A stretch of 63,650 nt of DNA, filler included, from Rhabdomonas costata (taxonomy: Eukaryota), in assembly GCA_019059605.1 (NCBI GenBank). It is 33 parts of 33 records of this genome, joined end to end, with 100 filler letters (N's around TTAATTAATTAA, not from the genome) between each part and the next. Parts side by side here need not be neighbours in the genome. Positions count along the whole stretch, not along the records: positions 57,945 to 59,790 come from JAHMHO010008481.1; positions 59,891 to 61,720 come from JAHMHO010008482.1; 31 more parts are not named here. One strand, written 5' to 3'. Positions 46,762-61,720 of this stretch are shown piece by piece (positions within the stretch are counted from its first letter, which is position 1; each line of letters opens with the position of its first letter). The position numbers were made by a program, and so were the translations under genes. The notes under the pieces are model-generated. The model did not search any database, was not told where the DNA came from, and was given only the letters and a program-made list of their open reading frames with translations.

Positions 46762-47575
46762 TCACTCAGAGGAGGTGTACAAGAAGTTGAGCTCCAGGGG
46801 TTTGAGATCTGGGTTGGCCTTGAGGAAACCCGGGAAGTCCCACGACGGGCGATCCGTAGAAGCCACTCGGACAGGCTGCCCTCCCTGCTGGAACAGCACA
46901 AAGATGTACCGGTGCACCCCAGCAGGGGGCGCTGGGCCGCGGTGGCTGACTACCTCCTTTCCAGAGGCGGCCGACCCTTCGGGGACAAAGCGGCGGTGGG
47001 AGGAGGCAGGAGAGTTGGGCGAAGGGGGAAGAATGCACGAAAACAAGAATACATCCGACTGCACCACATGACAGCGCTTGAATTCGTTTGAATAGGACTG
47101 GATACTACCAAAACAAGCATTTCAGTGCGAACTCAACTCAAGTGAACTCAGTCAGAGTTCCCCCCACAGCATCCAAAATATGATCCAATGCGGTTGTCAC
47201 TTGACAAGTTGGAAATTGGCTTGACACAGTGGGCGAGGACATTTTCCTCACGAGTGACCTGCCGGAGTATCACAGCCCCCCCAAGAGCTCACACACAGGC
47301 GCACTGCTCGTACCCACGGCATCTGTGACGAGCCAGTGCAGCCAGGGCCCCTTCGCTCCCGGGGTGGAGCCATCTCCTACCCGAGTGGGGGCGTCTGGAT
47401 CGACGTATACCAGCGCGCAAGGACCGTACTCAGGGGGCCACTGCACCACGGGCTGCGTCTGCAGAAAGCGGTCCTTGGACTTCGAGAATTTCTCCGCCCC
47501 ATTGATAGCTGTGGGCCCGAACCTAACGGAGAGCTTCTTCAGGGAGGCAGGAATGCCCACCTTAGAAAGGTATAT
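46762..47575 (-). CDS. Phosphatidylethanolamine-binding protein (PEBP/RKIP family), last 2 exons
   Basis: Exons ~47575-47314 and 46976-46762 (stop): ALVYVDPDAP...PWLHWLVTDAVG|SAASGKEVVSHRGPAPPAGVHRYIFVLFQQ...DRPSWDF. DPDAP, HW and GxHRY motifs intact. Confidence 0.93.
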
Positions 47576-50479
47576 CTGTAACAGCAGCACAAAACGCCTG
47601 GGCTTTGACTCCGACTTGTGAACAGGAAGAGCTCTGCAAACGAAGAAAAGGGAAAGATTACCATTGCATCTTGCATCCTTGGTGGGGAGCAGTGTCAAAA
47701 AGCACTGTACGAAGCAAAGGATAAACGCCTCGTGGGAGTAACATGGAACAGAGTCGCTCGCGAAAGGCTTCGTTTGTGCTGGCCCAGAGTGCGGGCCACC
47801 TGGGGCTCGGCTCTTCACATGACTGTCGCAAAAGCTTCCGCAAAGGGCAACAGGAGGCACCTGGTATCATACCAAAATTACCGACTTATCAAAGGAATGT
47901 CATATTGCCGGAAAAAAGTTCAAAAAAGTCTTCTGCTGAAATCTCAGCGAAAGGTATAGCATGCAATGAAAGCCAGGAACGACCAATCCCATCCCGATCC
48001 ATGACTTCTTCCCAATACACACAGAGCATGGAAAGTACAGAAGTACACACAGTAAAGAAAACCGACCAACCCCACGACAAACACAAATGCTCAGCAGGAA
48101 AGGAGAGTGACCCCTGAATGCCACCGTCCTCCACACTCTTGCTGTTCACCAGCAAGTGTGCTGTTGAAGCCCGAGTAGTGAATGCCTCTCTCAACACACA
48201 ANNNNNNNNNNNNNNNNNNNNNNNNNNNNNNNNNNNNNNNNNNNNTTAATTAATTAANNNNNNNNNNNNNNNNNNNNNNNNNNNNNNNNNNNNNNNNNNN
48301 NTGTTGTGTGGAAAGAAGAGCGGAGTAGTGCGTAAAAGTTACCTGCAGCAGGCATCTAGACTCGCACTACTCCGCTCTTCTTTCCATACAACAGTTCACG
48401 TGTATACAATGTTTCCGGACCCATTTTGCCTGACTTTGGTGTTTGGCAAACGGCAACGTTGCGCAAGGCGCTCTCTGAATGTTTTTCCCAGCAAAACACC
48501 GAAGATGACAAAGTGATACCAAAAAGTATTTTCTACACATCAGAGGTTGGTCGAAGCCCCATGCTGCATTGGGCTTACGAGTCCAAAGCGTCGCTGCACC
48601 ACTCTACGCCAAAAACGAGCAAAAGGGAGAAACGAAGGAGAGAAACATTTTCAATAAAACCGCCATTAGGGCCCGGCGGCCAAGCCGCCACCGCTCCCAT
48701 GTATGCCGGATGAAAATCCATCGGGCATTGCAAAGGAAGGGGGCGGTGTATGAAAGACTATGACATCAAGTTACAAAGGCAGGCGGCTCTCCCACACCTG
48801 CAGGCCCTTCCAGAACAGATGAGAACAAATGCAAGGGCAACGGGTTCTCGAGTTTGGAGGGGTTGCCTTTGAGAAAAGTAAACACACAACGAGGGGGAAA
48901 TCGGGATGCATTACCGGAGAAGCGGTTGCTCACATAAAAACGTCGCTTCTCTCCACTCCCCCTCTCCCCTGCGCTGTGCTGTGAACTCAAAAGACTAACT
49001 TTCCCATTTCTGAAATCCCTAAAGAAAACACCACGCGTGGGCATCGAGTTCAGAGGGGTCTATCCGAGATAAACTAACACAGACCAAGACAAAAAAGAAA
49101 TCGCCAAAGAAAGGCATCGCTTCTAATCCTACTCCCCCCTCTCCGAGCTCAGAGACTGTGCAGACAATCGGCATAACAATCCAGAACAGCACGTTTGCGG
49201 GTAACCAATAGATTACATTGGGTTGTGGGGTGGGTGGGGCTGCGCGGTACGAGCACTGCACACAGAAGGGTGGTAAGCTGATTGGGAGGGGGGCATCATA
49301 ATTAATCTGCCACATATCCAGAAACACATACCGCAATAACAGTCTGTGGCCTTCAAGCTTGCAACTTGATGTAGGAGGCCAGCAATAAGGGGGAAGGGGG
49401 AGCGAGAAAAACACACTCCAATTTGAACAGAAGTGTGTCTGGTGAGTGAGCACAGAATAACATGTCATCCATTAGCAAGTAGAGGAGAAGAGTCACCGTG
49501 GTTCATAGAAGCACGAGACAGGACGGAGGTCATGAATGGAAGCCAGTGCTGCACAGAATGGAGTACAGTAAAACGTGAGTAAAGAAAAAACGCACGCGAA
49601 ACTACACGCACCAAATCCAACTGCAAGATCCGTAACTTGCCTCACCGATAATCTAATATTCCTCCAATTTGAGAATGGCGCGGGCAGAAGGAATATGCCA
49701 GTAATTGAGAAAGGAAGTGGGGTATGCGAACGCTGATGGAGAGGGCAGGAAATCCACGGTTGAAAAAATCAAAGGTAAGGTTGGGGTGGGGTGGAGACAA
49801 AGGCGCACAAGTCCGAGCGCTGAGCATTGCGCATTGCACCGCGAACCAAGCGTTTCCATCAGCAGGTGACTGGTGAGGAGACAAGCACAGGTCCATGGGT
49901 ACGGGCCGCTCAACTGCCCAGCAGGGGAGGAAAGCCAAGGACAACGAAACTACTAGTCACACAGGCGCTCACAGGACGGGACCACCGAGTCACCAAGCTC
50001 CACAAGGTCCACAAGGCGACAACCGAAGCAAAACCAACCGGTGTCGAGCAAAATTATCGCGAGTTGCCAAAAGCTTGCGCACGTCAAAAAGAACACTGTC
50101 TTTATTGACTTTCACAGTGACACCAACACANNNNNNNNNNNNNNNNNNNNNNNNNNNNNNNNNNNNNNNNNNNNTTAATTAATTAANNNNNNNNNNNNNN
50201 NNNNNNNNNNNNNNNNNNNNNNNNNNNNNNGGGGGTGGGGGGAAGGTTTGGTGCGAAAGGCAGCATAGCATCTGCTCAGGCCAAAACCAAACCCTGGGAT
50301 GCTCACCACAGTTGCTACCAAGGGAACGGCAAAACCAGTGTTCGTCGGCTGGTTCGCAGTCAGTTGAGAATGGGATCCTCATTTTTGACCAAGTTCCAAC
50401 GAGCGTGGCCCGCATCCTTTTGATTCCCCTCTTTAACCAAGCCCTGATTAACACCAGCGCACGAGCGAACGAAACAGAC

Positions 50480-57844: not shown

Positions 57845-58046
57845 NNNNNNNNNNNNNNNNNNNNNNNNNNNNNNNNNNNNNNNNNNNNTTAATTAATTAA
57901 NNNNNNNNNNNNNNNNNNNNNNNNNNNNNNNNNNNNNNNNNNNNGGTGGTGCGCAGGGCAGCTGACGCTCGCCCCACAGGTCGAGTTTGCTTCTATAGGA
58001 CCAAATGAGCCCTTCTTTGCACTGTCTTTGAACTTTGAAATCGCAG

Positions 58047-58636
58047 CCAACCCGACCTGTGGGGCGAGCGTCAGCTGCCCTGCGCACCACTCGGCCTATC
58101 CCACGGTCGTGTGCTCCTCACAGTCCTGCAGCTCCGCCGACTGTTGTGCAGGTTTGCGTCCGGTGGAAGGCGTGGACATGAATTTCGATGTTGGCTTTTT
58201 TGACTTGTTGATCCTCTTCTATTGCTACTGCCGTTTCATTGCATGAAGAATAGAGCAGCGGAACCCCTGCTTTGCCCTTTGACTTGATTTGGGCAGCCAT
58301 TCACGGCAGGGGTTTGATCGCCGGCAGTCATCCTGTCTCGGTCATTTGGAATGTTTCACTATCCTGCAACCTTCGTTTGGTTTTTGTCCGTGTTGCGAAC
58401 AGCGCCTTCAAGCAATTTGGAAGAGTAAGACCAATTTTGAATAAGACCTGCACGTACCATCGTTGATGTTCCTCCTCCTCCTGCTGCCGCCGCTGCTGTA
58501 ACTACAGTTTGGTAGTTCCGTGATATCGCTTCACAGTGCTGGCGACTTGTGGAAGCAACTTCTCCTGCCCCAAGACTCACACCGCCAACGCCCCCAACAC
58601 GGGCTGCACTACCTGTGACTCCTCACAGTGCTGTAC

Positions 58637-58673
<37 letters not shown>

Positions 58674-59596
58674 GTTGGTAGTCTGCGTGCATAGGAGGCT
58701 GGCATGTTGCTTTCCTTGACCTGTGTTGTTTGTGTTGTTTCTCGATGGGTTAACATGAATGCTTTGGATAAACCTACTGGGAAGCGAAACGGAGCCGAAA
58801 AGTAATTGCTTGAGCTACAGTTGTTGGGCTCTTTAATATCCCATTTCTCTCTCAGCGAATCCGACTTGTGGCACCGTCGCCTGTCCATCGAGTCAAACTG
58901 CAAGCAGCGCAAGCACAATCTGCTCCTCACTGTCATGCAGCCAGGCCGAGTGCTGCACTGGTTTGTTTCTTGTTGCGCTTAGGCGCTGTCCAGGCGAAGC
59001 GTTTTTCCCGCAGAAAGCTGGCGGGAAAAACGGACCCCCACCGGAGAGCTTACGGAGAGCCACTTAGCGGATTTGACCAATTGCACACTTGATTGAAGGT
59101 TCGGTCTTAAAGAGAAAGGCTTCCTTTGATGTGTAACTTGGGTTGCGTGAAGTACTCTGTTCTTTCAGTTCCCCTATGATTGCTTTGGAGGGCAGTGGTT
59201 TTGTCTATTTCTCTTCGCCTCAGCCAACCCGACCTGTGGTGGCAGCTTTGCGTGCCCCTCAGGCCACACCGCCAAAGGCTCGAGCACGGTCTGCTCGTCC
59301 CTGTCGTGCAGCCAGGCAGACTGCTGCACAGGTGAGCTTGCCTTTTTTTTTTTTGCGTCGGAGGGCATTTCGGCTTTTTTCCGAGCATGGACCTACATTT
59401 CAGTTGGAAGTCGTTTCGTCTCAGCCTCATATTACAGAAAAAGGGTTTTGGTTTTTGCTCGCGACCGTCTGTTCCTTCTATTCATTCACAGCCAACCCGA
59501 CCTGCAGCATCATGACCTGCTCCTCAGGCTTCACTGCAAACAGCGCGAGCACTGTCTGCGCCTTTTTGTCTTGCACCCACGCCGAGTGCTGCACTG
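58047..59596 (+). CDS. Cys-rich repeat protein: five single-exon 6-Cys modules
   Basis: Exons 58047-58151, 58537-58638, 58856-58960, 59224-59331, 59492-59596 (102-108 nt, all phase 1-1, AG/GT flanked), e.g. ANPTCGTVACPSSQTASSASTICSSLSCSQAECCT. Confidence 0.9.
58639..58669 (+). repeat. (GT)n microsatellite beginning exactly at a splice donor
   Basis: ACAG|GTGTGTGT... about 15 units. Confidence 0.9.
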
Positions 59597-59648
59597 GTTT
59601 GTTTTCTACTGTTCTCCAGCCCGGCGCCCCATTCCGCGAATCTTTCAC

Positions 59649-59679
<31 letters not shown>

Positions 59680-60203
59680 CATAATTTCTCTATAATTTCC
59701 TGTATATTTCTATAATTCTTCTTTCTTCTACTTTTTATATTACTTGTATAATCCATATAAAGTTCGTTACACCGTTAACTCAAAACCACANNNNNNNNNN
59801 NNNNNNNNNNNNNNNNNNNNNNNNNNNNNNNNNNTTAATTAATTAANNNNNNNNNNNNNNNNNNNNNNNNNNNNNNNNNNNNNNNNNNNNTGTTGTTGTG
59901 CAACCGTGAAACTACCGTGCGCTCATGCTCTAACTTTGCCGCAGCGGACCCGCTTCTGATAATCTTCTCAGTTTCTGTGCTCGTCGTACCCTGCGATATG
60001 TTGACTTACATTCTTCTTTCAAACGTGCACGTCGCATCGAGCAAAACCTGCAATTGCTGAAAATACTGGCACCGTTTTGTTTTAAGCAACGCTCTTGACG
60101 GTGACCTCTGGTCGTATTCTGGTCATACGTGTCGTCCTTCTGTCAGGTCCTCTTGTTTTTTTCTTCGCTTTTGTAGTGTGGTGCACTGTTTTTTTTATCG
60201 TAG

Positions 60204-61720
60204 CGTGCCCGCGATGCGGGGGTGCCGTGATCTGTCCCAAGGGATACCATCCTGGTGTGCCCTTCGCCCGGTGCAGTTCTTCGATCTGCAACCTCACCGA
60301 CTGCTGCATCGGTGTGTCTGGATGCACGCGGTAGATGTCAACTGAGAGTTGGGCAGTGATTGATGGCCAGCTTTTCTTGGCTGGTTTGCCTTTATTTTTT
60401 CTTTTTTTGCAGCAAACCCCACTTGTGGTAGCGTCGGGAGCTCGTCCTGTGGGTTCGGCTTTCCTTGCGACCCTGGCACGTTCCCGAAGCCGCTCTCCAC
60501 TATTTGCTCGTCGGACACTTGCACAGCCTCGGACTGCTGCGCAGATATTCCAGGTGCTGGTCGTTGTTGTGTTTTGCGCTTTCCCCCCAGTCGCTTTGAA
60601 AAAACTGCAATGTAATCTTCAGCTGTGCCATCACGTCAGTATTCGCCTATTCTACTTCCGGGGCTTCTCCGTGAAGCCCCCATGTGCGCCCCACCCCACC
60701 CACATTCACCCGCTGTTTTGCTTGGTTGTTTTAGGCGCTTGGGGTTGTTGTACGCCAAGGAAAAAGAAAGCTACTGCAAGGGTCAAAGGCTGCTTCCTCC
60801 GGTCAAGATAGGCCTCCAAGGTTTCCACGAACCGGTTTACGTTTTCTCGCAGTGCCGACGACCTGTGGCTCCTTTTTCAACCAGTGCTCGGGCTGCCCCT
60901 CGGGGTACACCGCGAAAAACTCCACCACTGTCTGCGCTTCCACGACATGCAACATCACGGACTGTTGCTCTGGTCCCGGCATGCCTGTTCTCGCCGTCTT
61001 TGCCGCCCCCAGATCATTCTAGGGGATCTCAGAGCAGAAGCAATTAGTTCTCGGTTGCCGGGCTTAGAGATCCATGCATGTGCCCCCCTTGGGATTCCAA
61101 TAGAAGATTTCCTTGGGGTTAATGGGCGATGCACGTGCCGCCTGTGACAGGAGCACAATGGGGCTTAGCCCCCCCATTTTTGGAGGGTAAAGTGGGTGCC
61201 GTTTTTATTACAGAAGAAGTCCCATCAACGTTGCTTGCTTCGACAAATTCCCGCATTTGTTGGCAGTGGTTTTCAGGTTTTATACATTCTATTCCATATA
61301 CATTGTATTTGACGAAGCCCACCAGGAGGTGTATTCATTTTTTTACTTGTTTACGGTACGTAGAAATAGGTTGTGGGAAAGAAGGGCTGAGGTCGGGGCG
61401 AATTAAAATTAACCATCGAGAGTCTGCCCTGAGAATCAGTAAGTCTGCGTAGCTTGAGGGAAATTTGCTGTTCTTGCACCAAGGCAAGAAGAACAAGGAC
61501 GCAAAGTTTCACACCTCACTTTGATCTTCTTGAAATGGTATTCGTGGGATCATCCCATCATTTCCTTTTGTCTGTGCGATTTTTATTCCTCACCTCTACG
61601 GGGGTTTGATTTAGACCTCTCCAGCGCTGGCTCTGAGAACGGCAACGGCGGCGGCAATGGCAAACCCAACAATTCCAGCAAAGCCAGCAATACCGTGGCC
61701 ATTGCTGTCCCGATAGTGGT
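60204..61720 (+). CDS. Cys-rich repeat membrane protein: three module exons plus linker and start of a transmembrane segment
   Basis: Exons 60204-60311, 60413-60553, 60853-60972 (phase 1-1; TC...CP...C....C....DCC) and 61615-61720 (DLSSAGSENGNGGGNGKPNNSSKASNTVAIAVPIV). Confidence 0.85.

Follow-up and report, generated by a model that had tools for sequence, protein, structure and literature searches.

What kind of protein is encoded by a protist gene in which every cysteine-rich module sits on an exon of its own, and how might such a gene have arisen? This question is raised by two contigs of the draft genome of the euglenid Rhabdomonas costata. They lie within a stretch of 63,650 nucleotides (hereafter the window), composed of 33 contigs of 1823-1846 bp each with N/TTAATTAATTAA spacers between them. 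Contig A (57945-59790) and contig B (59891-61720) together carry eight short exons (E1 to E8), each encoding one module with six or seven cysteines, and a ninth exon (E9) that is cut by the contig end. These exons probably encode a surface glycoprotein with a rod-like ectodomain of disulfide-bonded modules, one per exon bounded by phase-1 introns on both sides (phase 1-1), with the array derived from old tandem exon duplication. The module represents an unnamed, probably extracellular domain family without a Pfam model or a solved relative, and with a confident predicted fold. The exons and complete introns are arranged as follows:

58047-58151, plus strand: exon E1, 105 nt, phase 1-1, one 6-Cys module, defined by AG/GT bounds and translation; hidden Markov model (HMM) E 2.6e-14
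58152-58536, plus strand: intron I1, 385 nt, GT-AG, phase 1
58537-58638, plus strand: exon E2, 102 nt, phase 1-1, 6-Cys module with LATC start and C-x2-C variant
58639-58855, plus strand: intron I2, GT-AG, phase 1
58856-58960, plus strand: exon E3, 105 nt, phase 1-1, 6-Cys module, its amino-acid sequence 74% identical to that of E4
58961-59223, plus strand: intron I3, GT-AG, phase 1
59224-59331, plus strand: exon E4, 108 nt, phase 1-1, 6-Cys module
59332-59491, plus strand: intron I4, GT-AG, phase 1
59492-59596, plus strand: exon E5, 105 nt, phase 1-1, 6-Cys module; a GT donor comes next, then 194 nt of intron sequence before contig A ends
60204-60311, plus strand: exon E6, 108 nt, phase 1-1, 7-Cys module, Cys replacing Asn of NPTC
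60312-60412, plus strand: intron I6, GT-AG, phase 1
60413-60553, plus strand: exon E7, 141 nt, phase 1-1, 7-Cys module with 8-residue first-loop insert and 3-residue tail
60554-60852, plus strand: intron I7, GT-AG, phase 1
60853-60972, plus strand: exon E8, 120 nt, phase 1-1, 7-Cys module, containing two N-x-S/T sequons
60973-61614, plus strand: intron I8, GT-AG, phase 1
61615-61720, plus strand: exon E9, cut by the contig end, TAG acceptor, phase 1; Gly/Asn/Ser-rich linker with N-x-S/T sequons, then eight hydrophobic residues

The module exons are symmetric throughout. All eight are 102-141 nt in length and divisible by three, open with two bases that finish a codon, close with one base that begins the next, and have edges that coincide with those of their module. 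An earlier note on this DNA had described one module per symmetric phase-1 exon in eight exons on two contigs, and bounds, lengths and phase bear this out in 8/8 cases. The predicted splice dinucleotides comprise AG at 9/9 acceptors and GT at 8/8 visible donors, and mean pyrimidine content at acceptor positions -23 to -4 is 0.71, compared with 0.55 across the introns overall. The nine exons contain no stops or frameshifts, and the module-bearing DNA differs in composition from its surroundings (GC 0.58-0.68 and third-position GC 0.59-0.80 in exons; GC 0.37-0.54 in introns and flanks). The complete introns span 101-642 nt, with 6/7 not divisible by three; read-through meets in-frame stops in 6/7 and a frameshift in the seventh, I4, and hence the modules are joinable by splicing alone. 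The reconstructed junction codons (GTG, GCG, GCC, GCC, GCA, GTG and GAC) specify V, A, A, A, A, V and D, so the spliced product is predicted to carry a CC-x-A-NPTC linker between modules. These junctions recreate an inter-module linker found in two other proteins, since P0001, an R. costata protein derived from cDNA, has an unbroken CC-x-x-NPTC and CC-T-A-NPTC occurs in P0004, an intron-free metagenome open reading frame (ORF).

Two simple repeats lie within the introns, namely a (GT)18 microsatellite (58639-58675) that begins right at the intron 2 donor and a (TC)13 run (59654-59679) in the intron downstream of E5. At the start of contig A, positions 57946-57996 form a fold-back copy of the E1 acceptor and the first 44 nt of that exon; this arm pairs with a second at 58040-58090 (51 nt, 92% complementary). 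The fold-back is probably an amplification or assembly chimera lying outside the gene, which leaves just about 43 nt of genuine sequence upstream of E1.

The modules share a conserved cysteine framework. Each is about 35 residues long and follows the pattern C-x(4-13)-C-x12-C-x(2-4)-C-x4-CC, or in its more general form C-x4-7-C-x12-14-C-x4-C-x4-CC, with six cysteine columns invariant in 8/8 modules. The cysteine count is six in each of E1 to E5 and seven in each of E6 to E8, in agreement with the earlier description of conserved spacing and of 7-Cys variants on contig B. The seventh cysteine (60204-60972) occupies a different site in each of these three modules, either in the first loop or in the N-terminal motif, and an odd number of cysteines means that one is either left as a free thiol or bonded to another module or chain. 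A profile HMM built from the eight modules was run against 2234 six-frame pieces of the window and recovered its own eight at E values from 3e-17 to 1e-11. An extra minus-strand match (57946-57987) corresponds to the fold-back copy of E1. Module exons are confined to contigs A and B, making exactly 2/33 module-bearing contigs. No further module exon was found in the other 31 contigs, where the best match reached only E 0.075, and the existence of hidden extra modules elsewhere in the window was rejected on this basis. Cysteine-rich open stretches occurred on the plus strand only in a six-frame scan.

No known family accommodates this module. Pfam-A searches with nine window peptides (E<=10) returned DUF5465 and AWS alone, both chance matches below threshold, and searches with 20 homologues (E<=0.1) found no family across the module regions. 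Profiles of EGF type (EGF, EGF_CA, EGF_laminin), TNFR_c6, LDL-receptor class A and sushi (CCP) accordingly gave no match to a module in either set, nor did the s48/45 '6-Cys' profile with the window peptides. The lone EGF match, at residues 124-153 of the homologue P0033, falls outside the modules of that protein. The earlier impression that the module is unlike EGF, TNFR, LDLa and sushi is therefore sustained and extends to the other Pfam-A families. A profile search of all PDB sequences yielded a single row (E 4.6), in which 17 residues matched a poxvirus protein by chance. No published account of such a module, whether from euglenids, diplonemids or brown algae, was found, subscription journals lying outside the search.

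Structure prediction provides a confident fold. AlphaFold2 modelled the four tandem modules of P0004 from a 25-sequence alignment with a predicted local distance difference test score (pLDDT) of 91-97 over residues 71-210, each module having the same short strands and one helical turn; the single window module E4 gave a mean pLDDT of 87.7. A Foldseek search of the PDB with the P0004 model found nothing at E<=0.001. Its top row was a mastigoneme protein of Chlamydomonas (E 1.1), ahead of TNFR2 (E 1.3) and HER3 (E 2.4), with weak matches to the EGF arrays of NELL and EMR2 (E 4-6). VIA-align placed 5/48,161 chains at Z>=2, all of them TNFR-type cysteine-rich domains and below significance. RANK, DR6 and OPG scored Z 2.0-2.3 with a root-mean-square deviation (rmsd) of 4.1-5.2 Å over 62-66 aligned residues, the best being Z 2.3, 4.1 Å and 66 residues. 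The single-module E4 model, which at 37 residues is a weak test, gave 0 Foldseek rows at E<=10 and 0/48,161 chains at Z>=2. In the ESM Atlas there was no usable named cluster, and structure rows for EGF_CA and TNFR_c6 had template modelling (TM) scores of 0.32-0.34. The module resembles in manner the small disulfide-rich rods of EGF/TNFR type, yet no sequence-profile membership test tried for these families includes it. The EGF fold has disulfides 1-3, 2-4 and 5-6. The C-P-x-G turn of the module is presumably like that of EGF/TNFR-group modules.

Relatives of the module are present in diverse proteins and organisms. The eight-module profile matched 33 proteins at E<=1e-3, six of them at E<=1e-10, among 1.84 billion representatives, and sources were looked up for 23/33. 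Six of the 23, the nearest relatives with a named source, are R. costata transcripts from EukProt EP00906 (P0001, P0005, P0006, P0014, P0027 and P0029; profile E 6.5e-25 to 2.7e-4), P0020 is from the diplonemid Rhynchopus humris and P0016 from the brown alga Cladosiphon okamuranus; the remainder are metagenome or catalogue records, including many marine sequences. Within R. costata, the same module occurs across genes of differing architecture, accompanied by Pfam domains Kelch (P0006 and P0027), Methyltransf_FA (P0014) and Peptidase_S8 (subtilase; P0029). P0001 and P0014 align from the end of Methyltransf_FA into the modules (E 1e-23). By eye, signal-like N-terminal segments occur among the R. 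costata homologues, and in P0029 the modules are followed by a C-terminal membrane helix and tail. These architectures indicate use as a mobile extracellular module. A second profile search with whole proteins found further long proteins, rich in modules and with hydrophobic segments at their termini.

The arrangement of partner domains is itself stable in one case: in both P0006 and P0027, a Kelch beta-propeller is flanked by at least three modules before it and one after. P0005 contains a Cys/Trp-rich stretch (approximately residues 134-188) that separates its third and fourth modules. This stretch looks PSI (plexin-semaphorin-integrin)-like; Pfam gave no match to it at E<=0.1.

Some short records among the matches may capture the same exon organisation. 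Eight short ORFs (P0002, P0003, P0010, P0012, P0013, P0018, P0021 and P0030) contain one or two modules each amid unrelated, often low-complexity text; P0002 comes from a 1670-bp contig and P0003, 81% identical to E4, from a 687-bp contig. By eye, 7/9 of their modules continue as CC-x-G and then into unrelated text, as in-frame read-through of a G/GT donor would. Judged from their protein sequences, these ORFs look like single-module exons read into introns, which would fit a many-exon family in the same or a related genome. When metagenome contigs were scanned, P0004 as query produced 68 pattern matches and the four window modules closest to it 51, and none of these was confirmed.

The module is also found in a viral setting. 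A viral scan with P0015 returned nothing, and those with P0054 and P0009 identified one IMG/VR contig of 17,235 bp (L001/L002), with two module genes:

L001 2-1816 and 1846-2997: two adjacent, intron-free viral ORFs, with 5 and 6 modules

The window-built HMM matched these ORFs with full-sequence E values of 1.1e-12 (5 modules) and 1.6e-18 (6 modules) in a two-sequence search. They have an N-terminal hydrophobic anchor (by eye), and the locus is 39% GC. Scanning 10/19 ORFs of >=120 aa showed that the module genes adjoin a nucleocytoplasmic large DNA virus (NCLDV) major capsid protein gene, a PI-PLC-like gene and the catalytic subunit of poly(A) polymerase. The neighbouring capsid gene indicates that a giant virus also carries the module. 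Given its presence in a diplonemid, a brown alga, marine sequences and the giant-virus contig, the module is not private to this protist, and the idea that it evolved independently there is not supported.

The array appears to be old and under constraint. As had been noticed, the introns are mutually dissimilar: the best blastn match between different introns has E 0.037 and is a T-run, and similarity among introns was accordingly rejected. A DNA repeat family linking E3, E4 and E5 stops about 10 nt beyond the exons. Synonymous divergence (dS) between module pairs is 0.74-3.5, at or near saturation, in the 25/28 pairs that were computable. Best identities among window modules (0.43-0.71) compare with 0.46-0.77 to modules elsewhere, such that the window modules are no closer to one another. 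Saturated dS, unalignable introns and low mutual identity together indicate that the array is old. The ratio of nonsynonymous to synonymous divergence (dN/dS) is 0.07-0.69 in 25/25 computable pairs, which points to purifying selection on the modules. The identity comparison found no near-identical module copies. Recent duplication and an antigen-like family were rejected on these grounds, and the suggestion of a variable surface-antigen family is not supported. The retention of 17/17 visible splice dinucleotides amid randomised introns speaks for splice sites that are used.

These observations can be combined into a single explanation. Contigs A and B would contain parts of a gene for a cell-surface glycoprotein, either the same gene on both or a pair of paralogues. 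Splicing would join the modules through one split codon each, restoring the linker CC-x-Ala-Asn-Pro-Thr-Cys, and the last exon would supply a glycosylatable Gly/Asn/Ser linker followed by the probable start of a single membrane helix. Such a linker and helix would make the product a type I membrane protein with its modules outside the cell. The array may have grown through old tandem duplication of an exon-plus-intron unit, a process that is harmless because of the 1-1 phase. By analogy with the R. costata proteins in which the module accompanies Kelch, a Methyltransf_FA-type domain or a subtilase, it may serve as a stalk or spacer presenting other domains, or provide an adhesive or receptor surface.

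Several points weigh against this explanation. Splicing is predicted, because searches for a transcript of the gene itself were unsuccessful: with the eight modules as query, a word-index search returned only paralogues among 1618 candidates, and a 40-aa query from E9, including six intron-encoded residues, found none among 15 candidates. E9 likewise had no relative among those 15. The ends of contigs A and B do not overlap, which bears on the single-gene version. The gene as present in the window consists of ectodomain modules, linker and eight hydrophobic residues, and lacks a signal peptide or N-terminus. Each of the three contig-B modules has an odd, seventh cysteine. With respect to type I topology, the earlier account of the last exon holds for the Gly/Asn/Ser linker; of the transmembrane helix start, eight hydrophobic residues are visible, and the helix is extrapolated because the contig ends after them.

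The same residues could be read differently, as a glycosylphosphatidylinositol (GPI) signal or a mere hydrophobic patch on a secreted or GPI-anchored protein of matrix or mucilage. Beyond the shortness of the visible segment, inspection by eye lends this some weight, as P0001, P0005 and P0014 have no membrane helix in the recovered part and P0055 ends in a short hydrophobic C-terminal tail typical of GPI signals. However, P0029 of R. costata and a further relative, P0053, both have, by eye, an internal C-proximal hydrophobic helix and then a charged tail, and a Gly/Asn/Ser juxtamembrane linker ahead of a helix is the usual type I layout, making a secreted or GPI-anchored product unlikely. It is also unlikely that the module, instead of forming its own family, is a diverged relative within the EGF, laminin-EGF, TNFR-CRD, furin-like and ephrin-receptor-like group of small disulfide-rich beta-hairpin domains. 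The sole fold matches, all weak, are indeed to arrays of this kind (TNFR2 and HER3 by Foldseek; RANK, DR6 and OPG by VIA-align; EGF_CA and TNFR_c6 in the Atlas), but all fold scores are far below significance, the single-module model has no structural match, and neither Pfam nor the PDB profile search places any of these families on the module. Furthermore, the terminal C-x4-C-x4-CC is kept in 139/155 modules of the retrieved proteins, a count that includes redundant cluster members. Both of these alternatives are compatible with a modular surface glycoprotein rather than exclusive of it.

A third possibility is that the symmetric exons are cassettes, skipped and combined by alternative splicing to generate many surface isoforms or a variable antigen family. 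Since 8/8 module exons are symmetric and divisible by three, any subset could be skipped without a frameshift, and the brown-alga relative lists two isoforms (g17131.t1 and g17131.t2). The latter are 621 and 622 aa long, however, and thus differ by one residue and not by a module. Modules are contiguous in the transcript-derived R. costata relatives, and the symmetry is accounted for as a simple by-product of tandem exon duplication. The age of the modules, the purifying selection on them and the lack of the near-identical copies expected of an antigen family with fast turnover make cassette diversification very unlikely. Lastly, genome amplification or assembly could have given rise to the exons as decayed or chimeric copies, which would belong to no working gene. 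The 51-nt fold-back that opens contig A and the lack of a matching transcript on record are in keeping with such an origin, but this is barely credible for nine uninterrupted exons with six invariant cysteines in 8/8 modules, dN/dS below 1 and every visible splice dinucleotide intact despite introns diverged beyond recognition. A surface glycoprotein built from an old tandem array of module exons thus remains the preferred explanation.

The closest organisational parallel is with animals. Metazoan extracellular modules, such as EGF-like, LDL-receptor class A and sushi domains, spread by phase 1-1 exon shuffling (Patthy's rule). The R. costata locus has in common with these one small disulfide-rich module per exon, phase-1 introns on both sides, lengths divisible by three, tandem arrays ahead of what is here a probable membrane anchor, and pairing of the module with varied partner domains in one organism. 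In contrast, its module is of another fold or family, without a Pfam match and in a protist host; the duplication seen here is tandem and within one locus only, rather than transfer between genes by intron recombination; and modules are contiguous without introns in P0004 and in the virus. TNFR_c6 and EGFR-furin-like regions are similarly elongated rods of approximately 35-40-residue modules with three disulfides each and provide the best, though weak, fold matches (Foldseek E>=1.1; VIA-align Z<=2.3, rmsd >=4.1 Å). They differ in that no profile matches and the window cysteine spacing ends in an adjacent CC. The six R. costata transcripts share the module and its CC-x-x-NPTC linkers, but are paralogues whose best module identity to the window is 0.47-0.56, and their partner domains are not on contigs A or B. 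The giant-virus proteins also consist of tandem arrays matched by the window HMM, but are intron-free, low in GC (39%), anchored at the N-terminus and encoded beside a major capsid protein gene. Plasmodium '6-Cys' s48/45 proteins likewise have six cysteines per unit and lie on a protist surface, though only the nickname is in common: the s48/45 unit is about 120 residues, and the window modules have no significant Pfam match, including to s48/45.

Little else was recognised in the window. A 198-aa open frame (47273-47866, minus strand) weakly matches the family of phosphatidylethanolamine-binding proteins (E 6.7e-4; 20.4 bits against a cut-off of 24 bits). This was the sole, sub-threshold result of Pfam searches on 10/81 stop-to-stop ORFs of >=130 aa elsewhere in the window, and an Rfam scan of the whole window gave 0 matches. 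The genome report describes the R. costata draft as very fragmented, derived from amplified DNA and 51.6% GC, with transcriptome GC above genome GC and introns mostly of the conventional GT/AG type (PMC8219788). The GC of the window and its conventional introns are compatible with that description.

A more far-reaching reading is possible and is offered tentatively. The module may constitute a disulfide-rich fold family, as yet undescribed, whose members have spread between euglenozoans, stramenopiles and giant viruses, perhaps with the viruses as carriers, and with euglenid surface architectures built by duplication and shuffling of phase-1 symmetric exons. If true, this would be an independent, non-animal case of 1-1 exon shuffling, and could also permit isoforms that skip modules. 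The novelty of the gene structure is limited because alignment of exon and domain boundaries is already reported to be widespread across eukaryotes and commoner in young proteins (PMC6547436). Nevertheless, the locus is a clean non-animal example of one small disulfide module per phase 1-1 exon, from euglenids, in which gene structure is barely charted. A new family model based on this module would annotate surface proteins of euglenids, diplonemids, brown algae and giant viruses.

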